64,000 bases of DNA, from the NCBI GenBank assembly GCA_964617195.1, contig CAZTVK010000019.1, positions 225,019 to 289,018 of the forward strand, written 5' to 3'. This document shows, piece after piece, positions 8,358-41,940 of this stretch (the stretch's first letter is position 1; every line of letters begins with the position of its first letter). Position numbers and translations under genes: made by a program. The stretch is from an uncultured Methanosarcinales archaeon. Its GTDB lineage: Archaea > Nanobdellota > Nanobdellia > Woesearchaeales > ARS49. The notes under the pieces were generated by a model. The model saw nothing but the letters and a program-made list of their open reading frames with translations. It did not search any database and had not been told where the DNA came from.

Positions 8358-9476
8358 TTGTTTTTAAAAACCCCTGTGTTTGAAACACACATGGACGACG
8401 TGCTAGAGGAACACATACGTATAAGTGCAGAAAAAGGCCTTTCACGAATCGAAATCAAACAATTCCTTCTAAAAGCAGGCTGGCCAGAATCACAAGTAAC
8501 AACATACCTTGAAAAAAGCTTCAAAAAACTCGAAAAAGGCACAATATTAAGAGCGCACGGACTCTCAAAAAACTTTGAAGACCACCAAGTCCTCTCAAAT
8601 ATCGACTTTGAAATCAAAAGCGGAGAAATCTTCGGCCTAATCGGAATGAGCGGAGCAGGAAAAACAACACTGCTCAACCTATTAGTAGGATTCCTCAGAC
8701 CAGACCAAGGAGACGTCGTAATGGCACTCCAAGACGGCACAACACGAAGCGTATACAAAAATCCGCATTTAATCAGGCAACACATAGGATTCTCAACACA
8801 AACACCAAGCTTTTACGGAAAACTAACAGTAAGAGAAAACCTCGAACACTTCGCAAAACTCTACCACCTAACAGAACCAGACCTGACAAGACGCTGCAAC
8901 GCACTCCTAGACCTCGTCGGCCTAAAAGACGCAAGAGACGCAACATCATCACACCTCTCAGGAGGAATGCAAAAAAGACTAGACATAGCCTGCGCACTAC
9001 TGCACGACCCAAACATACTAGTCCTAGACGAGCCAACAGCAGACCTCGACCCAGTACTAAGAAAACAATTCTGGGAACTAATAAAACAAATCAACCAAAA
9101 AGGAACCACGATAATACTAGCATCACACTTCCTCGCAGAAATAGAACTCCTCTGCAGCAGAATAGCAATACTGCAAAACAAAACAATAGCCGAACTAGGA
9201 ACAGCAGAAGAGCTAAGAAACATCTACTCCAAAAACTACGAAATATACCTAACCACAAAAACACAAGACTACACCAAAATACTGGCAGAACTCGAAAAAA
9301 GAAAACGCTATTTCGTCAAAGCAACACAACAAGCAGGAGAACTAATCATAGAAACACCAGTCCCAGAACAAGTCCTGCCAATACTATCTTCCTGCCTTGA
9401 GAAAGAAAAAATACAAAGCCTGCACGTCGAAAGACCAACACTAGGCAAAGTCTTCGAAGCAGTGGTGCGACGATGA
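8358..9476 (+). CDS. ABC transporter ATP-binding protein with ~55-aa N-terminal helical extension
   Basis: Walker A GMSGAGKTT, signature LSGGMQKR, Walker B ILVLDEP, H-loop; alternative ATG start at 8391. Confidence 0.85.
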   Translation: MFLKTPVFETHMDDVLEEHIRISAEKGLSRIEIKQFLLKAGWPESQVTTYLEKSFKKLEKGTILRAHGLSKNFEDHQVLSNIDFEIKSGEIFGLIGMSGAGKTTLLNLLVGFLRPDQGDVVMALQDGTTRSVYKNPHLIRQHIGFSTQTPSFYGKLTVRENLEHFAKLYHLTEPDLTRRCNALLDLVGLKDARDATSSHLSGGMQKRLDIACALLHDPNILVLDEPTADLDPVLRKQFWELIKQINQKGTTIILASHFLAEIELLCSRIAILQNKTIAELGTAEELRNIYSKNYEIYLTTKTQDYTKILAELEKRKRYFVKATQQAGELIIETPVPEQVLPILSSCLEKEKIQSLHVERPTLGKVFEAVVRR

Positions 9477-11260
9477 ACTCAGACGTACTAGAACTAGTAA
9501 AGAAAAACCTGAAAAACCTAATCAGAGCAAAAGCAGGATCACTCGTCGTAATACTAGGACCACTAATCGTAATCTTCCTCGCAGGACTCGCGTTCGACAA
9601 CAGCAACGCTTACGCAGTAAAAATAGGAACATACACACCAGAACCAACAGACATCACAACAACATTCCTAGACCAGCTAAGAACACAATTCAAAGTAAGC
9701 GAGTACGAAACAGAAGAAGACTGCGTAGACGCCATCAAAAAAACAGACATCAACACGTGCATGTCCTTCTCACCAGACTTCACAATAGGAAAACCGCCAC
9801 AAAACCAAATCACATTCTACGTAGACTATTCACGCATAAACCTCGTATGGAGCATAATGCAAACCATGACCCAGAAAGTCGGAGAGAAAACACTCCAAGA
9901 AAGCCAAAGTTTGACAAAACTGCTCATAGACACCCTTGAATTCACGCACAACAAAATCAAAGACGAACGAGAAATCATAGTCAAACTAGCAACAGAAAAC
10001 GAACTAATGAACAAAAACGTCCAAGACCTCGCAGCAGAACTCGGCGACATGAGCCTGGAATTTAACGAAAACGAATTCGGAGTCCAGAACATAACCAGCG
10101 CAAAAACACAAGTCAAACAATGGATGGAAAGCACACTCACAATAAGCGAAAAAGGATTGTCAAAAGCAACAAACTTCATCAGCGCAGCAGACGCACTAGT
10201 AAAAGGCTCAGCAGCAGGACAACAAGTAAAAGACAAACTCCTCGAAAACTTCCAAAAAAGCTTAGACGAAATCAAAAAAGCCAAAGCAGAACTCGCTGAA
10301 ACAAAAAACCTCACCAAAGAATCATTCCTCAGATTTGACAAACAAATGATAGAATTAACAGAAACCATCACAATGACAAAAGACAGACTAAATGAAGCAG
10401 ACACCAGCAGACAATTAGGACTAAGAGTGCTCGAAGCCATAACAAGCCTACTTGACAAAAGCCTGATCAGCATAAGCGACGTACAACAAGCACTAAACGA
10501 CATAGACAATCGGATAAGCGCCATAGAAATCAAAGACCCAGAAGCAATCACGCAGCCAATCGTCACTTCAATCAAGCCAATAGTACAAGAAAAAACCTAC
10601 CTCAACTACCTCTTCCCAATACTCAGCATACTAATCATAATGTTCACAGCCCTGCTGATCACGCCAACACTAATCATGCTTGACAAGAACAGCCCTGCCA
10701 GCTTCAGAACATACATGACACCAGTAGCAGACACCAGCTACGTAATATCAAACTTCATCACAGCCTCAATACTGCTTTCCCTGCAAACAATAATCGTACT
10801 AGCAATCGCGAGCGTATTCTTCACCAGCCAAGTTATTTCTAATATCCCAGAAGCATTAGTGCTACTAGTCATCATCAACTCAGTTTTCATCCTAATAGGC
10901 ATGATAATCGGCTACGCATTCAACAGCGAAGAAGCAGCCACACTAGGAGGAGTAAGCATCGGAGCAGTCTTCCTCTTCCTCAGCGACGTAATCATCCCAT
11001 TAGAAAGCATGCCAGAATCATTCGCATACATCGCCAGCTTCAACCCATACGTTCTAAGCAGCCAACTACTCAGAAGAGCACTAATCTTCGACCAAACATT
11101 ACTCAGCATGCTCGGAGACATAATAATAATGCTAGGATACATCGTAGCCCTCGCAATACTCGCAACCGGCATTTACCTGCTCACCAGACGCTATTCAATG
11201 CAACAACTAATGAAAGCAATCACGCCAGTATTTGCGCGCGTAAGATTCAAGAAAAAATAA
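9473..11260 (+). CDS. ABC-2 family permease with large extracytoplasmic coiled-coil domain (YhgE/Pip-like)
   Basis: 595 aa; TM1, ~330-aa helical extracellular domain, 5 C-terminal TM helices; ATGA overlap with ATPase. Confidence 0.7.
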   Translation: MNSDVLELVKKNLKNLIRAKAGSLVVILGPLIVIFLAGLAFDNSNAYAVKIGTYTPEPTDITTTFLDQLRTQFKVSEYETEEDCVDAIKKTDINTCMSFSPDFTIGKPPQNQITFYVDYSRINLVWSIMQTMTQKVGEKTLQESQSLTKLLIDTLEFTHNKIKDEREIIVKLATENELMNKNVQDLAAELGDMSLEFNENEFGVQNITSAKTQVKQWMESTLTISEKGLSKATNFISAADALVKGSAAGQQVKDKLLENFQKSLDEIKKAKAELAETKNLTKESFLRFDKQMIELTETITMTKDRLNEADTSRQLGLRVLEAITSLLDKSLISISDVQQALNDIDNRISAIEIKDPEAITQPIVTSIKPIVQEKTYLNYLFPILSILIIMFTALLITPTLIMLDKNSPASFRTYMTPVADTSYVISNFITASILLSLQTIIVLAIASVFFTSQVISNIPEALVLLVIINSVFILIGMIIGYAFNSEEAATLGGVSIGAVFLFLSDVIIPLESMPESFAYIASFNPYVLSSQLLRRALIFDQTLLSMLGDIIIMLGYIVALAILATGIYLLTRRYSMQQLMKAITPVFARVRFKKK

Positions 11261-29832: not shown

Positions 29833-31602
29833 ATGAAAAGAACGCACACATGCGGCGAAATCACAAAAAAAGAACTACAAAAAGAAGTAGTGCTCTGCGG
29901 CTGGGTACAAACAAGAAGAGACCACGGAGGCAAAATCTTCGTAGACCTACGCGACAGATACGGAATCACCCAAGCAGTCTTTGACCCATCACACAACAAA
30001 CAAGCACACGAAACAGCACAACACCTAGGCAGAGAATGGGTACTCCAAATAACCGGACACGTCAGACTAAGACCGCAAGGCATGACGAACACAAAAATCG
30101 TAACAGGAGAAGTAGAAGTCCTCTGCGACTCACTAACAGTCCTCAACCAATCAGAAACACCACCATTCGAAATCGAAGACCGAGAAGAAACAAACGAAGA
30201 ATTACGCCTAGAATACAGATACTTAGACCTAAGAAGACAAAGCATGCAAGAAAGATTATTACTACGCCACAACGCAGCACAAGCAGCACGAGAATACCTG
30301 TCATCGCAAAACTTCATGGAAATAGAAACACCAATACTCCAAAGAACAACACCAGGAGGAGCAAGAGTATACAAAGTACCAAGCAGAGCACACCCAGGAA
30401 AATTCTTCGCACTACCAGAATCACCACAAATCTACAAACAACTATTGATGGTAAGCGGATGCGACAGATACTTCCAACTAGCACGATGCCTCCGCGACGA
30501 AGACTTACGAGCAGACAGACAACCAGAATTCACACAAATAGACCTAGAAATGAGCTTTGTAGACGAAAAAGACGTACAAACAATCGTAGAAGGACTCATC
30601 AAACACACATTCAAAAAAGTACTCAACAAAGAAGTGCAAACACCATTCGCCAGAATGACATTCCACGAAGCCATGACCAAATACGGAAGCGACAAACCAG
30701 ACCTGCGCTTTGGGTTAGAGTTTGTTGACGTAACAGACATAGTAAAACACTCCGACTTCGGAATATTCAAATCAGTGGCAGACAAAAAAGGAAAAATATT
30801 CTGCCTAAACGCAAAAGGAGCAGGAAAGTTCACACGCACAGAAATAGAAGAACTAATCGAAATCGCCAAACTATACAAACTCCCAGGACTAGCATGGATG
30901 AAAGTAACAGGAACAAACATGCTCGAAAGCAGCATAGTAAAGTATTTCCAACAAAACATCCAAGCACAACTAATCAACGCAGTAAAAGCACAAGAAGGAG
31001 ACTTATTGCTTTTCGCAGCAGACCAATTCGAAAAAGCAGCAAACGCGCTAGGACAAGTAAGACTACACATCGGCAAAAAACTAGGACTAATCAAAGAAGG
31101 AGAATACAACTTCCTATGGGTAGTAGACTTCCCATTATACGAATGGAACGAAGAAATCAACAGCTGGCAAGCAAGACACCACATCTTCACGCATCCAAAA
31201 GACGAAGACCTAGACAAACTAGAAACAGCACCAGGAGAAGTCAGAGCAAAAGCATACGACTGCATCCTGAACGGAGTAGAACTAGGAGGCGGAAGCATCA
31301 GAATCCACAGAAAAGACGTACAAGCACGCGTATTACACGTTATTGGTCTCGAATATGAAGAAGCAGAAAAAAGATTCGACTTCCTAATGAGAGCCTTCAA
31401 ATACGGCGCGCCACCACACGGCGGAATAGCAATCGGATTCGACAGATTCGTAGCACTAATGTGCGGACTAAATGATATCAGAGAAGCAATCGCGTTCCCA
31501 AGAAACAAAGCATCAGAAAACCCGCTAGACGGCAGCCCACAAGACTGGACAGAAGAATTTTTGAAAGAACTACGAATGAAACTGGACATTGTTAAAAAAT
31601 AA
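29833..31602 (+). CDS. aspS: Aspartyl-tRNA synthetase, bacterial-type (long form with GAD insertion domain); likely non-discriminating
   Basis: 589 aa; N-terminal OB domain (RTHTCGEI…VLCGWVQTRRDHGGKIFVDLRDRYG), class II motifs 1-3 (FRDEDLRADRQPEFTQID; GGGSIRIH; GFDRFVALMCG). Confidence 0.9.
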   Translation: MKRTHTCGEITKKELQKEVVLCGWVQTRRDHGGKIFVDLRDRYGITQAVFDPSHNKQAHETAQHLGREWVLQITGHVRLRPQGMTNTKIVTGEVEVLCDSLTVLNQSETPPFEIEDREETNEELRLEYRYLDLRRQSMQERLLLRHNAAQAAREYLSSQNFMEIETPILQRTTPGGARVYKVPSRAHPGKFFALPESPQIYKQLLMVSGCDRYFQLARCLRDEDLRADRQPEFTQIDLEMSFVDEKDVQTIVEGLIKHTFKKVLNKEVQTPFARMTFHEAMTKYGSDKPDLRFGLEFVDVTDIVKHSDFGIFKSVADKKGKIFCLNAKGAGKFTRTEIEELIEIAKLYKLPGLAWMKVTGTNMLESSIVKYFQQNIQAQLINAVKAQEGDLLLFAADQFEKAANALGQVRLHIGKKLGLIKEGEYNFLWVVDFPLYEWNEEINSWQARHHIFTHPKDEDLDKLETAPGEVRAKAYDCILNGVELGGGSIRIHRKDVQARVLHVIGLEYEEAEKRFDFLMRAFKYGAPPHGGIAIGFDRFVALMCGLNDIREAIAFPRNKASENPLDGSPQDWTEEFLKELRMKLDIVKK

Positions 31603-31950: not shown

Positions 31951-33353
31951 TAAAACAATTCGTCAAAGACGCAATCTCAGGAAAAATAAACATAGTAGAA
32001 CACACAGAAAAAGCAATAGAGGAAGCAGAAAAAATCAACAAAGAATACAAGTATGTCACAGCATGGGCCGACGCAGTTGAACGAGCAAAAGAATTGCAAG
32101 AACAAGTCAAAAACGGAACAGCACACGGAAGACTATTCGGAGTCCTAATTTCTGTCAAGGACAACATCTGCGTCAAAGGAGTAGAAAGCACAGCAAGCAG
32201 CGCCATACTGAAAGGCTACAAACCAGTATTCAACGCAACAGTAATCGAAAAATGCCTGCGCGAAGGAGCAATAATACTCGGCAAAACAGTCCAAGACGAA
32301 TTCGGATTCGGAGGATTTGCAGTCAATGTAGGCAAAGGCTTTGAAAAACCGTTAAACCCAATAGACAAGAAAAGAACAACAGGCGGAAGCTCAGGAGGAG
32401 CAGCAGGACTCACAAAAAAAGCAACATTCCCACACCTAGCATTATCAGAAAGCACAGGAGGAAGCATAGTCGACCCAGCATCATTCTGCGGAGTAGTCGG
32501 CATCTGCCCAACCTACGGACGCGTCTCACGATACGGACTCATCGACTACGCAAACAGCCTGGACAAAATCGGAACAATGGGACTAACAGTAGACGACGCA
32601 GCGCTGTTGCTAGAAATAATCTCAGGACACGACGCAAAAGACAGCACATCAGCAGAAATCCCAGTACACCCACTAGACACGGCCGGAGCAATAAACGGAC
32701 TAAAAATAGGAATAGTCACGGAAGCATTCGAGGGAGTGGACGCTAACGTCAGAAAAGCAGTAATGGAAGCAATCTACAAACTAGAACAAAAAGGAGCACG
32801 AAGAATAGAAATTTCACTTCCAATCTCAATGAAATACGGACTCGCAGCATACTACACTTTAGCCATGACAGAAGCAAGCACCAACCTCGCAAAATACTGC
32901 GGACTACGCTACGGAGCAACAGACCAACTAACAGGAACATACAACGAATACTTCACACGCGTAAGAACCAACAATTTCGGAGAAGAAGCAAAAAGAAGAC
33001 TATTGCTAGGAACATTCGCCAGAATGGCAGGATACCGCGATGCATTCTACAAAAAAGCAGCACAAGTCAGAACCTTAATACTCAAAGAATACGCTGAAGC
33101 GTTCAAAAAAGTCGACGTTTTGATAACGCCAACAATGCCAATCGTCGCGCCAACATTCGACGAAATCAAAAAACTAACACCACTCCAGAATTACCTGATG
33201 GACATTCTTACTGTTTCTCCAAATCTTGCAGGACTGCCGCACATTACAATACCATGCGGTCAACACAACAACCTGCCAATCGGCCTGATGATAACCGGAC
33301 CACACTTCGCAGAACAAAAAATAATACAGGTAGCAAAAGCACATGGAAACTGA
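31947..33353 (+). CDS. gatA: Asp-tRNA(Asn)/Glu-tRNA(Gln) amidotransferase subunit A (amidase)
   Basis: 468 aa; amidase signature GGSSGGAAG, Ser-cisSer-Lys triad context. Confidence 0.9.
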   Translation: MIKQFVKDAISGKINIVEHTEKAIEEAEKINKEYKYVTAWADAVERAKELQEQVKNGTAHGRLFGVLISVKDNICVKGVESTASSAILKGYKPVFNATVIEKCLREGAIILGKTVQDEFGFGGFAVNVGKGFEKPLNPIDKKRTTGGSSGGAAGLTKKATFPHLALSESTGGSIVDPASFCGVVGICPTYGRVSRYGLIDYANSLDKIGTMGLTVDDAALLLEIISGHDAKDSTSAEIPVHPLDTAGAINGLKIGIVTEAFEGVDANVRKAVMEAIYKLEQKGARRIEISLPISMKYGLAAYYTLAMTEASTNLAKYCGLRYGATDQLTGTYNEYFTRVRTNNFGEEAKRRLLLGTFARMAGYRDAFYKKAAQVRTLILKEYAEAFKKVDVLITPTMPIVAPTFDEIKKLTPLQNYLMDILTVSPNLAGLPHITIPCGQHNNLPIGLMITGPHFAEQKIIQVAKAHGN

Positions 33354-34753: not shown

Positions 34754-35230
34754 ATGGGAGAACTTGAAGAACTGATAGAAAAACTTCAAACAGAAGAAGG
34801 AAAAATCGCAGCAATTGTCGATGCTGTTGAACGTAAGCTGATTACCAATCCAGATTATATTGAGCGCACATTCCAATTTTATGTGAATTTAGGGATAACT
34901 GACCAGTACAGTGCAATTGATGGACTGAAGAAGCTTGATTTACCGCAATATTCAGAAAGAATTATTGATGCTTTAGAAAACATGAAAGAATATGTAGAAG
35001 CTGCAGAATTCGCCCAAAAAAACGGATTTCTTGAGCGAGCTATAATTAACTATGAACGTTCAGGCAACTTTGTTTTCGCAGCGAAAAACTGTGAAGAACA
35101 CGCCATGCAAATAAAAGCTGAAAATCCTGATGAAGCCATCAAATACTCCGTGAAAGCTGAAAATTATCTTGAACTCGCAAAAGCACTTGGCCACGAAAAA
35201 GTCATAGCTCTTTTTGAAGAGAAGCGCTAG
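34754..35230 (+). CDS. Hypothetical all-helical protein
   Basis: 158 aa, no recognisable motif. Confidence 0.4.
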   Translation: MGELEELIEKLQTEEGKIAAIVDAVERKLITNPDYIERTFQFYVNLGITDQYSAIDGLKKLDLPQYSERIIDALENMKEYVEAAEFAQKNGFLERAIINYERSGNFVFAAKNCEEHAMQIKAENPDEAIKYSVKAENYLELAKALGHEKVIALFEEKR

Positions 35231-36429
35231 TTCTGGAACAAATTATCCAGTTCAGAATGCAATCTTGACTCGAAATCAGCGTTTCTCTCGCCTTCCAACT
35301 TCTCAGAAGACAACGAATGCATCAGTTTCTTGGCAAGCTCAACATCATCCGCAGAGAATTTGAACTGAGAAGCATGCTGTTGCAACAATGAATGCTCAAC
35401 CTCCTCAACATTAGCCTCCTTCACCATAATAACTTCCAAATCCTTGCTAGTAAAGGCATTCGTATTCTTCATCACAAAATAAGCCTTCCTAGCGTAAACC
35501 TCATGGAAAACATCATTCCAACGAACATCAGCAGGCCTGCCCTGACGCAAACAACCAGAAACACGAACAGCCACAATAGAATTAGCCAGACTATACTTGC
35601 CAAGCTCAATCATAATCAACGCCTCAACCTCAGAAGGAGTCTTACCGTCAGCATCAACAGAAACGCACACAGCAGGATGCACAACAAGAGGAACATGCAA
35701 CACGTTCCCATTCTCCACAATCACAAAACTACCATGCTTCAACTTCTCAACCTCAGAAAAATTATTAGGAAAAATAGGACCAGGGTAAACAATGTTCTTG
35801 TACTTGCCAATAGTTTGCTTATCAACCACGTGCACATGACCGCCAGCATAATAATCAAAACCAGCAGGCATCAATGAAACAGCCATCGCGTCCATCTGCT
35901 CCAAATCCTTAGGCTTCAACTCAGCCAAAGCACTATGAAACATGAAAATTTTGAAACCAGGCTCACTCTCAAGATGCTCTTTAGCCAAATGATAATAATA
36001 TCCCTTCTCAAGACCGCCCTTCTTGCCAAGCATACCAGTAATCTTAACACCAGTCTTCTGATCAACAGTAAAATGCAATTTGATTTTGTTATCAGGAGTT
36101 TCCTCACCACGCGCAACATTAACCGCAAGACCAGCATGCTCAAGAACATCCAACATGGTCTTGCCACTAGGACTAAAATCATGACTGCCGGCAATATAAT
36201 ACACAGGAATCCCAGCATCCTTAACTTTCTTCAACTGCTCAACAGCCATCTTCAAACTATCAATGCCTGGCACAGCAGTATTAAACAAATCACCAGAGAT
36301 GAGAATAAAATCCACTTTTCCAGCAAGACATTTTTCAATCGCCATTATGAAACTCTTGCTATTCGCATCACGCAGCCGAGGCTCACGCCAACCACCAATA
36401 TGACAATCAGACAAATGAGCGAACTTCAT
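35227..36429 (-). CDS. mre11: Mre11-like DNA double-strand-break repair nuclease (calcineurin-like metallophosphoesterase)
   Basis: 400 aa; phosphoesterase motifs I DCHIG, II GDLFN, III GSHD, IV FHSA, V GGHVH. Confidence 0.8.
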
Positions 36430-37925
36430 AACTTCAACCCAGCAAAACTCTGACGAGGCTTACTTACAACTTTATGTTCTTCATGCAAAATCTTGATAGG
36501 CGTGGCAAAACTCAAGAAATTACTCGTCACAATAGCCTCGCCCTTATCCAAACTCGCAATCATACGATCATCACTTGACAAGTCCTGCGCAGCACTCTCA
36601 ATAATGGCCTGACGCTCAGGCTTCAACTCAATACCAAGAATAATTTTCGTATTAATATTAGCAAGAACTTCCCTTGGAATCAAAGAAGGCAACTGCGTAA
36701 TCGCAATCAAGCCAACATTAAACTTTCGACCTTCACGCGCAACAGTAGAAAACACATTCGGACCTCTCTCCAACACGTCCTTGCCAAGAACACGAGGAGC
36801 CTCCTCCAAAACAATACTCACAACAGGCTTGCTCTTCATCTCATGCAAAGAATAAGTCTTATGCCGCTCCAAAACCATATGCGCAATCATGCTGCCAATC
36901 AAAATCTCAACATTACCATAAAAAGAACTCGTGTCCATGACAACAGTCTTTCCCGACTCAAGCGCATTCACAATATCAGGAACAGTAGTCTGGCCAGCAC
37001 TAGTATCAAACACGCCATGACAAGAAATATTCTTCTCATCATCAACATCCAAACGCAACAACTGCATTAAAGTACGCTTGACAACAGCCAAAGTCCCCTC
37101 GTGAAACTGCTGGCGCAACTCATGCTCCCGCAAAACAGCCTCAACCCAAGAATCCTTGTAAGCCTGATAATACGCAGTCAGGGCCTGACGCTGAGCATCA
37201 GTCCACTCAACAGCACCATCAAAATGACGCGGATTAAGCTGGCCAAGATGAACCTTCAAAGTCCTTCCACCCGGAGGAGGATTATACGGAGTATAGTAAA
37301 CAATCTGTTCACGCGCACCAGGATGCTTCTGCAATTTCTCATAATACTCATCATGAGGGTCAAGCACCAGCATAGCGCAATAATCCTTGTCAAGAGCATC
37401 CCACAACAAATTAGTCATCAACACGCTCTTGCCACGACCAGTCGTGCCAGCAATCAGAATATGATGGCTTAAAGCCAACCTGCCATCAACCGAAACAGGA
37501 ACCTCCAACACCTTAGAACCACTCCTCAGCTTACCAAGAAATAACGGATTGTGAGGAGTCGTGATAAAAGAAACATCACTTGCCTGAATTTCGCGAACCT
37601 TACTAAAAAAGGTAGGCAGGGTCTTAGCAGAACGCGCATTCTTTCCAGAAATAAAAGCCAAATTCTTCAAACGAGCAAGCACATAAGTTCGCAATTTAGC
37701 ATCCATCAGCTCTAACTTCTCATCCTCCTCCAATTTCAAACCAGAAATAAGCTCAAGATGCTGCTGGGTCAACTGAGAACCATATAACAAATCAAAAGCC
37801 TGCAATAACATCTGTCCATTCGATGTATCAGCAATCAGAAGCTCACCTAACTCCAACGCCTGCTCGTTCTTCTGGCGGACGAGAATATTTCCAAACTCTC
37901 CCCCAATAATCAACCCTTTAGTCAC
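36426..37925 (-). CDS. herA: HerA-like FtsK/HerA-superfamily ATPase/helicase
   Basis: 499 aa; Walker [11 protein letters not shown], HerA-type LVLDPHDEY block; ATGA overlap with mre11. Confidence 0.75.
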
Positions 37926-38013
37926 AATAAAAACTGGTTTTCAGCACTATATATTATTTGCGCGACTGGAAAATAGATTTAATAAAAGAAAAAGATAGAA
38001 AGAAAAAAATAAT

Positions 38014-38247
38014 TTATCTGCGGCCGCCGCGTGCCATCTTTGCACGTGAAACATCGCCTGCCTTGTCGACAAAGTACAAGAATCCTGATTGCTTCTTTAC
38101 GCCGACTTTTGAAACTTTTTCAACTTTGCCAGCTTTTCCTTTTCGACCGCGTGCCATCTTTGCCCTGGAAACATCTCCTGCTTTGTCTACAAAGTATAGA
38201 TAGCCTGTTGCTTTCTTTACGCCAACTTTTGCTACTTTTTCTGCCAT
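38014..38247 (-). CDS. Small Lys/Arg-rich protein made of two tandem ~35-aa repeats (nucleic-acid-binding/chromatin protein candidate)
   Basis: 78 aa from ATG 38247 with GGAGG 4-11 nt upstream; repeats KVGVKKxxG(Y/F)LYFVDKAGDVSRAKMARG x2; ORF-track start at 38412 is an upstream extension without RBS. Confidence 0.55.
   Translation of the reverse strand: MAEKVAKVGVKKATGYLYFVDKAGDVSRAKMARGRKGKAGKVEKVSKVGVKKQSGFLYFVDKAGDVSRAKMARGGRR
38031..38245 (-). repeat. Two diverged tandem copies (~85% identical) of a ~105-bp unit inside the small basic protein gene
   Basis: cgtgccatctttgc(a/c)c…caaagta…ctttacgcc(g/a)acttttg… occurs at 38031 and again at 38151. Confidence 0.7.
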
Positions 38248-38342
38248 TTTGTTTTCCTCCGTCTTTTTTAAGAAGGTCTTAGAAAATAACCTTCCCCCGT
38301 CGATATTCTTTATCTGACTATTTTTAGAAAAACGCCTGATGT

Positions 38343-38552
38343 TTATAAAGTTTTCTTTTTTCTCGTCGGTAAACTCGCTTTTTTGTCGAGTTTCTCGTCG
38401 TGAACGAACCATTGAGGCTTAAGCAATTTTCTCAATTTCTCCGCCTGCTCAAGCCCGTCCTTATAGATAGCAGTGATTTCTTCTCTAGTTGGAACTGGAA
38501 TTTTTTCCAATTCTTTCGCCCGTTCCATCGCTTTACGCACTTCTTTTTTCAT
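38343..38552 (-). CDS. Hypothetical small charged protein
   Basis: 69 aa, Lys/Glu-rich, upstream of the basic repeat protein on same strand. Confidence 0.4.
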   Translation of the reverse strand: MKKEVRKAMERAKELEKIPVPTREEITAIYKDGLEQAEKLRKLLKPQWFVHDEKLDKKASLPTRKKKTL

Positions 38553-38670
38553 TTGAGTTGTTTAGACGCTATAATCTTATAAATTTATCGAAGCTAACAC
38601 CTCTTAACTCAACGAAAACTATATATACTACGCCGTAGGCTAAATTAATGTAACAAAAAAGGTGGGTTTG

Positions 38671-39300
38671 ATGCTGCAAAAAATAAAAAAATTCTTCACA
38701 AATTTCTTTGGCGGAACAAAACAAAACTTCAAACTCGGACTTTACGGACCACCAAACTCCGGCAAGACAACACTCGCAAACAAAATATGCATTGATTGGA
38801 CAGGAAAAGAAATGGGCAAAGTGAGTCCAGTAGCCCACGAAACTAGAGAAATCGGAGTAAAAGAAAACGTCACCATCAAAAGTAAAGATGGAAAAGAACT
38901 CATGTTCTCACTTATCGACACGCCTGGCATCGCAACAAAAATCGACTATGAGGACTTCATGAAAGCAGGAATGTCAGCAGGCCAGGCAAAAAAAAGAGCA
39001 AGAGAAGCAACAAAAGGAGTCATCGAAAGCATCAAATGGCTTGACGAAGTAGACACAGTAATGGTCGTGCTTGACGGCACACAAGACCCATACTCACAAG
39101 TAAATGTCACGATCATCGGCAACCTGCAGGCAAGAAACATACCAGTGCTCATCGTGGCAAATAAAGCAGACCTGAGAAAGTGCAAAGTCAAAAAAGTCCA
39201 ATCAGCTTTCCCACAATACGAAGTTCTAGGAGTAAGCGCCAAATACGGCAAAAATATCGACAAATTATACGAAAAACTATTCGAGCTCGCGAGAAAATAA
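38671..39300 (+). CDS. Small GTP-binding protein (MMR_HSR1/EngB-like)
   Basis: G1 GPPNSGKTT, G3 DTPG, G4 NKAD; likely ATG 38671 (ORF-track start 38662 is GTG). Confidence 0.75.
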   Translation: MLQKIKKFFTNFFGGTKQNFKLGLYGPPNSGKTTLANKICIDWTGKEMGKVSPVAHETREIGVKENVTIKSKDGKELMFSLIDTPGIATKIDYEDFMKAGMSAGQAKKRAREATKGVIESIKWLDEVDTVMVVLDGTQDPYSQVNVTIIGNLQARNIPVLIVANKADLRKCKVKKVQSAFPQYEVLGVSAKYGKNIDKLYEKLFELARK

Positions 39301-39301
39301 A

Positions 39302-39727
39302 ATGGTAACAATACAATTCGTACCCTACACGGAAATCGAAGGATTAACCGGACTCGGCAGGATCAGAAAACTCCTTAACATAGCAAAGATGAACAAAATA
39401 GTATTGCTCCAAGGACGCTTAAGAAAAGAAGAAGAAGCAGAACTAATCAAAACAACAATGGAAGAAATCGACAAAAAATTCAAAGGCATAGAACTCGCAG
39501 TAATCAACCCATCACAAACAGCGCAAGATGGTCTGCAAAAATTCAAATACGACCTTCTAGGATTATTCCTGGGAGAAAGCCAAGGCCTCACAATCATCGG
39601 ACCATCAAACATAGTCAAAAGCATCAAAAAAGATCCGAACAAAATAGAACTGCTCACATCGGAGGTATCGGCAAAAAGATTCGCCGGAACTTCCTCTTAT
39701 AAGTCGGAGGCGCGCAAGCGCAAATAA
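39302..39727 (+). CDS. Conserved archaeal protein of the GTPase-associated pair (DUF2073-like)
   Basis: 141 aa; immediately after the GTPase stop; conserved gene-neighbourhood in archaea. Confidence 0.45.
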   Translation: MVTIQFVPYTEIEGLTGLGRIRKLLNIAKMNKIVLLQGRLRKEEEAELIKTTMEEIDKKFKGIELAVINPSQTAQDGLQKFKYDLLGLFLGESQGLTIIGPSNIVKSIKKDPNKIELLTSEVSAKRFAGTSSYKSEARKRK

Positions 39728-39729
39728 CA

Positions 39730-40110
39730 ATGCCGCACCAGTGCGTCAGATGCAGCATCTTCTATGAAGACGGCGCAAAAGAAATCCTCAAAGGATGCCC
39801 ATGCGGAGCAAGACTCTTCTTCTTCATAAGAAAAGAAAAACTCGAAGCGGCAAGGAAAGTCCTCCCAACAGAACTGCCACCAGAACAGAAAAAACAAATA
39901 GAACAGGACGTCCTGAACTTAGTAGGATACACAGAAGACACGCCAGTAGTATTAGACTTTGAAAGCGTCAGAGTAGTCGAGCCAGGCAAATACGAGCTAG
40001 ACCTAGTGCAATTATTCAAAGGAGCACCATTAATATTCAAGCTCGAAGAAGGAAAATACGTTATAGATATAGTGGAAAGCTTCGAACGGTTACGAAAACC
40101 TAAAAAGTGA
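39730..40110 (+). CDS. Zn-ribbon protein (C-x2-C…C-x-C) of the same conserved triad
   Basis: 126 aa; HQCVRCS…GCPCG motif. Confidence 0.5.
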   Translation: MPHQCVRCSIFYEDGAKEILKGCPCGARLFFFIRKEKLEAARKVLPTELPPEQKKQIEQDVLNLVGYTEDTPVVLDFESVRVVEPGKYELDLVQLFKGAPLIFKLEEGKYVIDIVESFERLRKPKK

Positions 40111-41019: not shown

Positions 41020-41940
41020 TTATTCCTCGTCAATAACAAGCCTGGCAACATTATTCGTCAAAGTCACCATAGTCCTGAACAATTCAGAAACGCCAGGGGG
41101 CAATTCTCCAGCTTCCTTCAGCAAATTCTCACGCTGCAAGGCAACACCATCAGCCACTTTCTTATCACGAGTAAAGTACGCCTTCATGACGTCCAAATAA
41201 CTCTTCTCAACCTTCTGAAGAACACCCTTAATCTTATCCTTCTTCTTCTCCTTAACCAAATAATCAGCCAACTGCTTAGCGCAATCAGCATAATTCTCCA
41301 GATTAATAGTCAAGTAATAGTAGCTCAGCACTTTATCGTTCGACAACTGGAAAAAGTCAGCAATCTGCTTATTCCGCAAAGAACTCTTCAACAAACGCAT
41401 CAACAAGAAGTAAGCACGATTAACCTCATAATCGCGAACAAAAACACTCTGCGCCAACTCAGCATTATCCAGAGAGCCAATACCGTCCTGAATCATGCTA
41501 CGCACAAGCATATCCATCCTGCGCAACGTCTTATCAATGCTGATTTCCTTCAAATTCAACAAGTCCTTAGCAACAATGCTGTTAGTAGTCTGGTCAGCAA
41601 CCTCCAACGCCACAAAATCGTGCAACATCTTCCGAATATCCTTAGTAAGCCTAGTCACACTCTGACCATTCAGAATAATAGTGTTGTAATTGTTGATATA
41701 CGCGCTAGTAATCTCGCGCTGAATAGTACTCAACTCCTTATCGTCAACAGGAATAGTAATCTCCTTCTGAGGCACCTGTTCATCCGCCTTACTTTCAGGA
41801 GTTATAGTGAGCTCCTTATCACCTTTCTCGTACAAATACACCAAATCGCCTTTCTTCAATTTATGACGATCAAGCCATTCTTTAGGAAGAGAAATCGTAT
41901 GCGAAGCCTGTCCTGCCTTAACCAGTCTACGAATAATCAT
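41020..41940 (-). CDS. Transcriptional regulator: AbrB/SpoVT swapped-hairpin DNA-binding domain fused to PhoU-like domains
   Basis: 306 aa; N-terminal MIIRRLVKAGQASHTISLPKEWLDRHKLKKGDLVYL (AbrB/MazE-like), remainder helical PhoU-like repeats. Confidence 0.7.
   Translation of the reverse strand: MIIRRLVKAGQASHTISLPKEWLDRHKLKKGDLVYLYEKGDKELTITPESKADEQVPQKEITIPVDDKELSTIQREITSAYINNYNTIILNGQSVTRLTKDIRKMLHDFVALEVADQTTNSIVAKDLLNLKEISIDKTLRRMDMLVRSMIQDGIGSLDNAELAQSVFVRDYEVNRAYFLLMRLLKSSLRNKQIADFFQLSNDKVLSYYYLTINLENYADCAKQLADYLVKEKKKDKIKGVLQKVEKSYLDVMKAYFTRDKKVADGVALQRENLLKEAGELPPGVSELFRTMVTLTNNVARLVIDEE

Follow-up and report, generated by a model that had tools for sequence, protein, structure and literature searches.

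A small two-repeat basic protein shared by archaea and bacteria and its candidate palindromic operator

The stretch of DNA analyzed here (hereafter, the window) comprises 64,000 nucleotides of contig CAZTVK010000019.1 (positions 225,019 to 289,018, assembly GCA_964617195.1) from an uncultured archaeon that is named a Methanosarcinales archaeon in GenBank and is placed among the Woesearchaeales in GTDB. On the minus strand of the window, at 38014-38247, lies a gene for a small basic protein that consists of two nearly identical repeats. This gene, the widespread family to which it belongs, and the short palindromes that recur in front of its members are the subject of the present analysis, in which we weigh the possibility that the protein reads these palindromes in its own promoter.

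The gene and its internal duplication

The coding sequence extends from the ATG at 38245-38247 to the stop codon at 38014-38016 and translates into 77 amino acids (MAEKVAKVGVKKATGYLYFVDKAGDVSRAKMARGRKGKAGKVEKVSKVGVKKQSGFLYFVDKAGDVSRAKMARGGRR), one fewer than assigned in an earlier reading of the window from its letters alone (hereafter, the sequence-only reading). Two other elements of that reading hold up well, namely, the highly basic character of the protein (8.3 kDa, isoelectric point (pI) 10.65, 22 Lys and Arg against 6 Asp and Glu, net charge +16 on 77 residues) and its ribosome-binding site, a GGAGG Shine-Dalgarno (SD) sequence at 38256-38260 on the minus strand, 8 nt before the ATG. 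The longest mechanical open reading frame (ORF) in the same frame reaches 38412 and amounts to 132 amino acids, but the shorter form is to be preferred because the homologs, which retain both the N-terminus and the length, all begin with MAEKV or MAQKV behind an SD, and because the gene is called in this 77-residue form in public assemblies. Among the 79 family loci on which all statistics of upstream regions, promoters and repeats given below are based (divided into archaeal and bacterial by record title), 76 carry an SD-like element no more than 20 nt from the start; the median pI of the family is 10.5.

The gene is built from a direct DNA repeat (family D1), the two copies of which, at 38147-38241 (repeat 1, residues ~3-34) and 38027-38121 (repeat 2, residues ~43-74) on the minus strand, recur with a period of 120 nt, or 40 codons, and are 81% identical over 95 nt. 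A codon-by-codon alignment spanning 33 codons gives 85% identity between the repeats in protein and 79% in DNA, and where both have the same residue, the codons agree in 59% of cases; this similarity is far beyond chance. Two repeats encoded by DNA copies of about 85% identity had been perceived already in the sequence-only reading, a figure that is accurate for the protein, whereas the DNA is less similar (79-81%) and the proposed unit of ~35 amino acids (~105 bp) falls short of the actual period.

The duplication is present in every family member seen, and both halves conform to one consensus. Between genomes, repeat 1 is no closer to repeat 1 (identity 0.72) than it is to repeat 2 (0.69), so that the two halves are under equal constraint, as expected if each has the same job. 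Codon identity between the repeats is nevertheless higher inside a gene (0.53) than between genomes (~0.40), and in one member from an Endomicrobium sp. (L039, 6001-6237), the repeats are 95% identical in nucleotides, with 97% of the same-residue codons identical, far over the family mean, a pattern that indicates recent intragenic gene conversion or re-duplication. The elevated codon identity within genes, together with such freshly homogenized copies, points to occasional intragenic conversion.

Distribution and conservation of the family

The family is large and spans both prokaryotic domains. A search of 5.8 billion cluster representatives recovered 2,715 relatives (~2,700 clusters at 90% identity), the best 120 of which are all two-repeat proteins of 75-130 amino acids with 67-100% identity. 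When the family profile was run exhaustively against 1.84 billion representatives of clusters formed at 50% identity, it matched 1,151 clusters, of which 437 scored below 1e-10; the best 150 of these 1,151 representatives include no homolog with only one repeat. The family is one of small proteins (~75-95 amino acids). When each GTDB species was represented by a single genome, at least 569 species encoded a family member (62-91% identical to the window protein), which leaves little doubt that the ORF, the conservation of which had been put forward as a test of the sequence-only reading, is strongly conserved. The record titles of family loci include, on the archaeal side, Woesearchaeota, Nanoarchaeota/Nanoarchaeia, and 'Nanobdellati', and, on the bacterial side, Elusimicrobiota/Endomicrobia, Omnitrophota, Planctomycetia, Myxococcota, Bdellovibrionota, Nitrospirae, Pseudomonadota, and others. 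When the search was seeded with a member of the Bdellovibrionota type, 1,162 further matches emerged, all unnamed and all from uncultivated lineages. One copy (P0271) sits on a contig of 1,125,857 bp that the sources name Ca. Endomicrobium trichonymphae. Mis-binning as the source of the bacterial matches is ruled out by the bacterial marker genes that share contigs with the family gene, namely, L25/Ctc, Pth and GlmU in one setting, UvrA and PanC in another, and ClpB, TilS and Omp85 in a third.

In every source, the family proteins are labeled 'hypothetical'. Neither Pfam (in a copy without PF27482) nor NCBIfam provided a significant match for the 77-residue protein, and there was no match among the PDB chains, ribosomes included, to either the protein sequence or a 75-member family profile; homology to a ribosomal protein, which had been named as the finding that would undo the idea of a novel family, is thus not detected in any of these collections. 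A precomputed accession, PF27482, is attached to one homolog (P0096), and we found no paper that mentions PF27482 or the YLYFVDK motif or that describes the family. Membership among phage, plasmid or defense-system proteins was considered and rejected: tblastn against 50,697 phage and 72,556 plasmid records detected no homologs, PADLOC returned no match for the small protein, and the surroundings are chromosomal housekeeping genes. PHROGs gave only marginal matches to unnamed families (E ~1e-3 to 1e-4).

Predicted structure

Two AlphaFold models (predicted local distance difference test score 89-91) concur on three beta-strands per repeat, arranged symmetrically in the two halves and unaccompanied by any predicted helices, so that the predicted topology of the whole protein is 3+3 strands, at residues 3-6, 16-20 and 26-30 in repeat 1 and 42/43-46, 56-60 and 66-70 in repeat 2. 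The suggestion of a beta-rich module made of two repeats, which had been drawn from the residue pattern, is thereby corroborated at the level of prediction. Foldseek searches against the PDB and BFVD recovered no structural relative; all matches were insignificant (E >= 0.5, TM-score ~0.3), the best of these weak matches being propeller fragments and alpha-crystallin domains. Judging from the alternation of residues along the strands, each repeat has a hydrophobic face (V5, L17, F19, A29 and M31, and their equivalents), which is probably buried, and an aromatic, basic one (Y16, Y18, V20, R28 and K30), which is probably exposed.

A palindrome upstream of the gene

The upstream regions of the family genes share a distinct sequence signature. 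The word CGACG/CGTCG recurs in front of the gene in archaeal as well as bacterial loci: CGWCG occurs 102 times in the 79 upstream regions of 200 nt, that is, 6.4 times per kb compared to 1.5 per kb in the rest of the loci, and four times as often as the next 5-mer of the same composition. In either reading, the core is flanked by T-n-Y and R-n-A, which makes for an 11-bp palindrome, TNYCGWCGRNA, that is found upstream 24 times compared to 0.8 expected (29-fold). Full palindromes account for 24% of the upstream cores and for 3% of the background cores (Fisher p = 8e-12), and 26 of the 72 full sites across the loci fall in the 250 nt before the ATG. As a further control, the upstream 200 nt of 602 other genes from the same loci contain YCGWCGR at 0.50 per kb, and only 1.2% of these genes have two or more sites, compared to 24 of the 79 family genes. 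The enrichment holds separately in the bacterial-titled (4.6 vs 0.76 per kb, 6-fold) and the archaeal-titled loci (5.2 vs 0.31 per kb, 16-fold). In the window, the only full TNYCGWCGRNA lies at 38361-38371, upstream of the basic gene.

No regulon is evident, with the background density of the palindrome in the 79 loci being near chance, and the two other CGWCG clusters in the window (~9425-9544 and 33113-33158) are located inside coding sequence and have no consistent layout. Decayed coding repeats were rejected as a source of the sites, given that, by eye, there is no similarity outside the palindrome and the spacing is unlike the 120 nt of the gene. As a separate observation, the only full palindromes inside the coding sequences of family members (L006, L010, L016, L043, L071 and L073) fall on the codons for Y-F-V-D-K, a motif that is invariant, as TTC-GTC-GA(C/T)-AA; thus, the most conserved codons of the gene can spell the putative operator, and the copy in the window, with TTT-GTC-GAC and TTT-GTA-GAC, contains no core.

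Promoter architecture and helical phasing

The sites occupy characteristic positions with respect to the promoter. In the window, a putative archaeal TATA box, TTTATAAA, lies at 38342-38349 on the minus strand (-102 to -95 from the ATG), and a TTTATAAA or TTTATATA box is found at a similar place in most archaeal loci. The full palindrome (TACCGACGAGA on the gene strand, 38361-38371) is situated just upstream of the transcription factor B recognition element (BRE) and the TATA box; 32 bp from it, at 38393-38403, there is a distal site with one mismatch to the palindrome (TCACGACGAGA), and the proximal site (TATCGACGGGG, 38295-38305), which contains the YCGWCGR core but is one flank off the full palindrome, is centered ~45 nt downstream from the start of the TATA box, all on the minus strand. 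Among 45 site centers in the archaeal loci, 21 fall in the 30 nt before the TATA box and 16 at 10-55 nt after it, with none within the first 10 nt from its start. The archaeal (TATA) and bacterial promoters of the family genes are otherwise unrelated; seven bacterial loci have a recognizable -35 hexamer, and all seven show a site 11-15 nt ahead of it, and in the four loci of the Elusimicrobia type, there is a second site in the spacer between -35 and -10 and, often, a third one at the SD. A promoter scanner independently called TTGACT-18-TAGAAT in one bacterial locus (L062) at the position flanked by the sites.

The distances between adjacent sites fit multiples of ~10.8 bp (mean cosine 0.47 at a period of 10.8-11.0), a degree of phasing that was matched by 1 in 20,000 random spacing sets (p ~0.04 when only unique spacing values are counted), whereas background pairs of the same word are unphased (0.15).

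A side observation concerns a locus titled 'Babeliaceae bacterium' (L021, 841-1080), in which a TTTATATA box of the archaeal kind precedes the family gene and the sites are arranged as in archaea; its 2.9-kb contig is probably an archaeal fragment that was mis-binned into a bacterial metagenome-assembled genome.

Gene neighborhood and domain fusions

The local gene order runs through AspRS, GatA, GatB, an unknown ORF, Mre11 (35227-36429, minus strand) and HerA (36426-37925, minus strand) to the basic gene, which, as had been noticed from the sequence, is directly upstream of herA-mre11. The two are parted by a T-rich tract of A/T-rich short repeats after the stop codon (37981-38013, minus strand), a probable archaeal oligo-T terminator. 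About 15 Woesearchaeota loci keep the same flanks, with the basic gene in both orientations relative to them, and it is therefore its own transcription unit. No conserved operon partner was found; the neighbors are housekeeping genes that differ by lineage. DNA-repair genes adjoin the family gene in several cases (herA-mre11 in ~15 archaeal loci, Hef in two, uvrA in six bacterial loci), but this association is weak: the contexts come down to three independent ones, and the gene occurs in either orientation with respect to herA. In Endomicrobiia, the gene lies beside glmU-prs-rplY(L25/Ctc)-pth, and in other bacterial loci, beside the genes for ClpB, TilS or Omp85. In six loci with Omnitrophota or Planctomycetia titles (L034, L040, L045, L046, L051 and L056), it is flanked on the same strand by nadX (Asp dehydrogenase) and uvrA, with upstream gaps of 13-28 nt (120 nt in L034 and 113 nt in L051) and 35-199 nt to uvrA; this arrangement probably represents one operon, and the operonic copies that have no promoter of their own have no sites.

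Directly upstream of the basic gene lies a conserved gene for a 69-residue protein (38343-38552, minus strand) that is called in public assemblies, has homologs with 30-57% identity at the same position in ~10 Woesearchaeota loci, and matches no Pfam family; at its 3' end, the stop codon and the TATA box of the basic gene overlap. The product combines a conserved helical core (…AKELEK.P.PTKEEI…KLLKP.WFV) with a variable basic tail. Divergently oriented from it are the genes for a GTPase (MMR_HSR1) and the 'origin-associated proteins' OapB (PF09846) and OapC (PF09845) at 38662-40110 (plus strand), which are followed by unknown ORFs, a PhoU/AbrB regulator (41020-41940), and a DHH phosphoesterase. 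The presence of OapB and OapC hints at a nearby replication origin, a candidate that we rejected because the cumulative GC skew is monotonic across the window, without a switch, and there is no Orc1/Cdc6 gene within 8 kb on either side. Over the whole window (1-64000), the AT skew reaches +0.45 and the GC skew is negative throughout (-0.05 to -0.36); the excess of A over T follows from most genes being on the plus strand, and the excess of C over G on the coding strand is unusual. The GAD insertion domain found in the aspartyl-tRNA synthetase (29833-31602, plus strand) is typical of the bacterial-type enzyme, yet the gene has GatA/GatB as neighbors and an archaeal (DPANN-like) setting.

The two-repeat module also occurs in larger proteins, in which it is joined to an Mrr_cat restriction endonuclease behind a transmembrane segment (P0198), to a region that matches the candidate-defense models PDC-S18/S11 (P0200), to a HIT domain (P0203), or to zinc ribbons, a GAF domain and a prokaryotic RING finger (P0138). 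Other long relatives attach it to transmembrane proteins, and further fusion regions are TPR-like or, by eye, nitroreductase-like and OmpA-like; some of these long 'fusions' look like frameshift or read-through artifacts. Many family members have long C-terminal tails that are rich in Ala, Lys and Arg and resemble those of histone H1. The nuclease fusion and the H1-like tails fit a DNA-binding module.

Discussion

The sequence-only reading had proposed nucleic-acid binding in a general form, as a chromatin or RNA-binding protein. Binding of nucleic acid indeed appears to be the best-supported function, but the evidence seems to favor something more specific than that reading envisaged. Our preferred reading, to which we give about as much credence as doubt, is that the 77-residue protein is a pseudo-dimeric binder of double-stranded DNA (dsDNA) that reads a sequence and regulates its own gene; it may double as a nucleoid-associated protein with an architectural role or as a regulator of wider scope. 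That the palindrome is the site for the product of the gene is suggested by the fact that the word follows the gene across domains and that the product is the only known component shared by these loci; that one half of the protein would occupy one half-site is suggested by the match between its two equivalent halves and the two half-sites of the palindrome. Under this scenario, each repeat would offer the same aromatic and basic face of its beta-sheet (Y16/Y18, R28/K30 and their equivalents) to one half-site of the 11-bp palindrome T-n-Y-CGWCG-R-n-A on dsDNA, and several sites on one face of the helix would bracket the core promoter of the gene, in archaea just upstream of BRE/TATA and ~10-55 nt downstream, and in Elusimicrobia just upstream of the -35 and within the -35/-10 spacer. 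The protein would thus adjust its own production, in the simplest case by repressing the gene when occupancy is high, and the basic linker and tail (the latter long and H1-like in many relatives) would add non-specific affinity for DNA. We infer the binding of this motif, the assignment of one repeat to each half-site, and also the sign of the regulation, on which the layout speaks in two ways: repression is suggested by the spacer site and by those that follow the TATA box, and a site just upstream of the -35 or the BRE could equally bring about activation at low occupancy.

Several observations weigh against this reading. About half of the 79 loci have no recognizable site within 200 nt, and the protein is equally conserved there, so that autoregulation through the palindrome cannot be the whole function. 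No residue change tracks the presence of sites (best p = 0.004 over 66 tests, which is not significant), and degenerate half-sites in the loci without a core are found at 3.1 per kb compared to 1.95 per kb, a difference that is not convincing. Moreover, in the clade of the window, the gene for the 69-residue protein is a real one, and its 3' end overlaps the two distal sites.

Alternatively, in line with the chromatin role proposed in the sequence-only reading, the basic protein could be one of the nucleoid-associated proteins and coat or bend DNA non-specifically through its charge, with the palindromes being read by some other factor or being intrinsic to the promoter. The loci that lack sites, the small size and very basic character of the protein, the strong SD in nearly all loci, the H1-like tails, and the absence of any sign of a regulon (one full site in 64 kb) are all compatible with such a role, as is the apparent retention of the gene in an endosymbiont genome, that of Ca. 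Endomicrobium trichonymphae. We consider this explanation, a serious rival, unlikely: it demands a second factor that exists in DPANN archaea and several bacterial phyla and follows the gene across domains, whereas no component other than the gene product is known to be common to these loci, and it leaves the correspondence between the symmetry of the site and the internal symmetry of the protein without explanation. The two possibilities overlap nonetheless, because many nucleoid proteins autoregulate.

A different case can be made from the 5' leader. Many ribosomal proteins, as well as CspA, control their own translation through a structured leader, and the basic protein could similarly be an RNA chaperone or a ribosome- or mRNA-associated protein that controls its own translation. 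In the window, the leader contains a hairpin (38270-38296, minus strand) with the arms GGGAAGGUU and GACCUUCUU and a 9-nt loop (-13.5 kcal/mol, z = -1.6), followed by an A-run and the SD. Archaeal leaders have comparable hairpins before the A-run and SD (mean z = -1.6 over 41 loci), with stems that vary while the pairing is kept (GAAGGT/ACCTTC, GGGGGC/GCCCC, AGGCT/AGCCT), and in some clades, the stem is built from GACG/CGTC itself (AAGACG…CGTCTT). The linkers rich in RG/RGG, the fusion to a HIT domain in one member, and the conserved G-aromatic-x-aromatic strand, which we take to resemble ribonucleoprotein-type surfaces, can be counted on the same side. Set against this, each site is palindromic, a property that has no role inside a single RNA strand, where an 11-mer of this kind would not fold on itself; the sites lie upstream of the -35, where they are presumably untranscribed, and of the TATA box, and their spacing follows the helical repeat of DNA. 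RNAalifold on 13 leaders produced zero consensus pairs, MAFFT having failed to align the hairpins, which vary in length, and the only Rfam match to the leader was a chance one to a miRNA, below threshold. There is also no likeness to ribosomal or RNA-binding families in Pfam or NCBIfam, and the protein is unchanged in bacteria and archaea despite their differing ribosomes. An RNA-binding protein thus appears quite improbable to us, and so does control at the RNA level in general. Least of all do we expect a protein that does not bind nucleic acid, that is, a portable protein- or membrane-binding beta-module or a propeller-like ring next to an unrelated upstream motif. The mixed fusion partners (transmembrane segments, zinc ribbons, GAF, HIT, and the TPR-like, nitroreductase-like and OmpA-like regions) and the propeller and alpha-crystallin fragments among the Foldseek matches lend themselves to such a view, and the hairpin motif [FY]-x-D-x-x-G is a generic one that many beta-repeat families possess. 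It is, in our estimate, very unlikely, considering that none of those structural matches is significant, that several of the long fusions resemble artifacts, and that such a view accounts for neither the charge of +16 nor the H1-like tails, the fusions to nucleases, or the symmetric motif with its phasing at the promoter of the gene itself.

If the reading as an autoregulating dsDNA binder is correct, the family would embody a new beta-sheet mode of DNA recognition and a rare case in which a regulator crossed between Archaea and Bacteria in the company of its operator. A bolder version, which we regard as doubtful on balance, is that the family represents an undescribed DNA-binding fold, in which tandem, helix-less, three-stranded units read a CG palindrome, that gene and operator have moved as one unit between Archaea and Bacteria and function with promoters of both the TATA/TFB and the sigma70 type, and that the protein could be a principal chromatin protein or global regulator in Woesearchaeota and several uncultivated bacterial phyla. 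The small proteins that organize DNA or regulate genes in DPANN archaea and candidate phyla are almost unknown because the organisms are uncultivated, and this family is unusually conserved across both prokaryotic domains without having either a recognizable fold relative or a name in the databases. It is also a tractable target: with 8 kDa for the protein and 40 bp for a DNA duplex, the pair would suit nuclear magnetic resonance or crystallography, and the duplex TTCGACGAA is the DNA suited to the question of whether one repeat binds one half-site.

Comparison with known systems

A small, basic, self-regulating DNA binder is a familiar kind of protein, but the family itself, its predicted fold, its spread across domains, and the operator that travels with it have apparently not been described in the literature, as far as we could determine. 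Two candidate affiliations can be dismissed at the outset. A cold-shock domain or OB-fold is contradicted by the lack of a Pfam match and by the predicted 3+3 strands, which do not make a five-stranded OB barrel, and a known ribosomal protein, by the lack of a match to any Pfam or NCBIfam family or, by sequence, to any ribosome chain in the PDB.

The likeness to the chromatin proteins Sul7d (Sso7d/Sac7d) and Cren7 that was put forward in the sequence-only reading extends to general features only: these are Lys-rich proteins of ~7-8 kDa that are all or mostly beta, with DNA binding likely via a face of the beta-sheet. Beyond that, the comparison breaks down at the levels of profile, structure search, topology and taxonomic range. 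There is no sequence or profile similarity (hhalign probability 0.1% each for Sso7d and Cren7, with query sequences that are approximate), and neither protein was retrieved by Foldseek; Sul7d and Cren7 form a five-stranded SH3-like barrel and occur in Crenarchaeota (Thermoproteota), whereas the present family is predicted to have 3+3 strands that stem from an internal duplication and is found in DPANN archaea and many bacteria. Furthermore, Sul7d and Cren7 bind DNA without sequence specificity, in contrast to the specific palindrome that accompanies this family. As an evolutionary analogy and nothing more, Cren7 has been viewed as a small beta unit that turned into a DNA binder (PMC5906684), and the present family could have arisen in a similar way.

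The nucleoid proteins with H1-like tails, such as Hc1 and HU with a PAKKA tail, resemble the family in being small and basic and in the long C-terminal tails rich in Ala, Lys and Arg that many of its members carry, but the core fold is unrelated and there is no homology; autoregulation is common among nucleoid proteins. A closer parallel in design is offered by AbrB/MazE/SpoVT and MraZ, in which small beta-rich units form a dimer or, in MraZ, a duplicated pseudo-dimer, bind repeated sites at their own promoter, and contain a hairpin turn of the D-x-x-G type; the family shares the two-fold symmetric, beta-rich design, the repeated sites at the gene's own promoter, and the turn. Membership in AbrB/MazE/SpoVT was rejected all the same, there being no match to PF04014 at E <= 10, no AbrB-like barrel in Foldseek, and no predicted helices; the same PF04014 model does detect the AbrB domain of the neighboring PhoU-type regulator.

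Finally, the AP2/ERF domain that recognizes the GCC box and the N-terminal domains of the Tn916 and lambda integrases read DNA with three antiparallel strands that are accompanied by an alpha-helix, in a single copy. The family differs from these readers in that it yields no Pfam AP2 match, has two tandem copies without helices, and is associated with a palindromic target; nevertheless, they may be the nearest mechanistic analogy for what one repeat would do at one half-site, where Arg and aromatic side chains on its three strands could recognize GC-rich bases in a groove.

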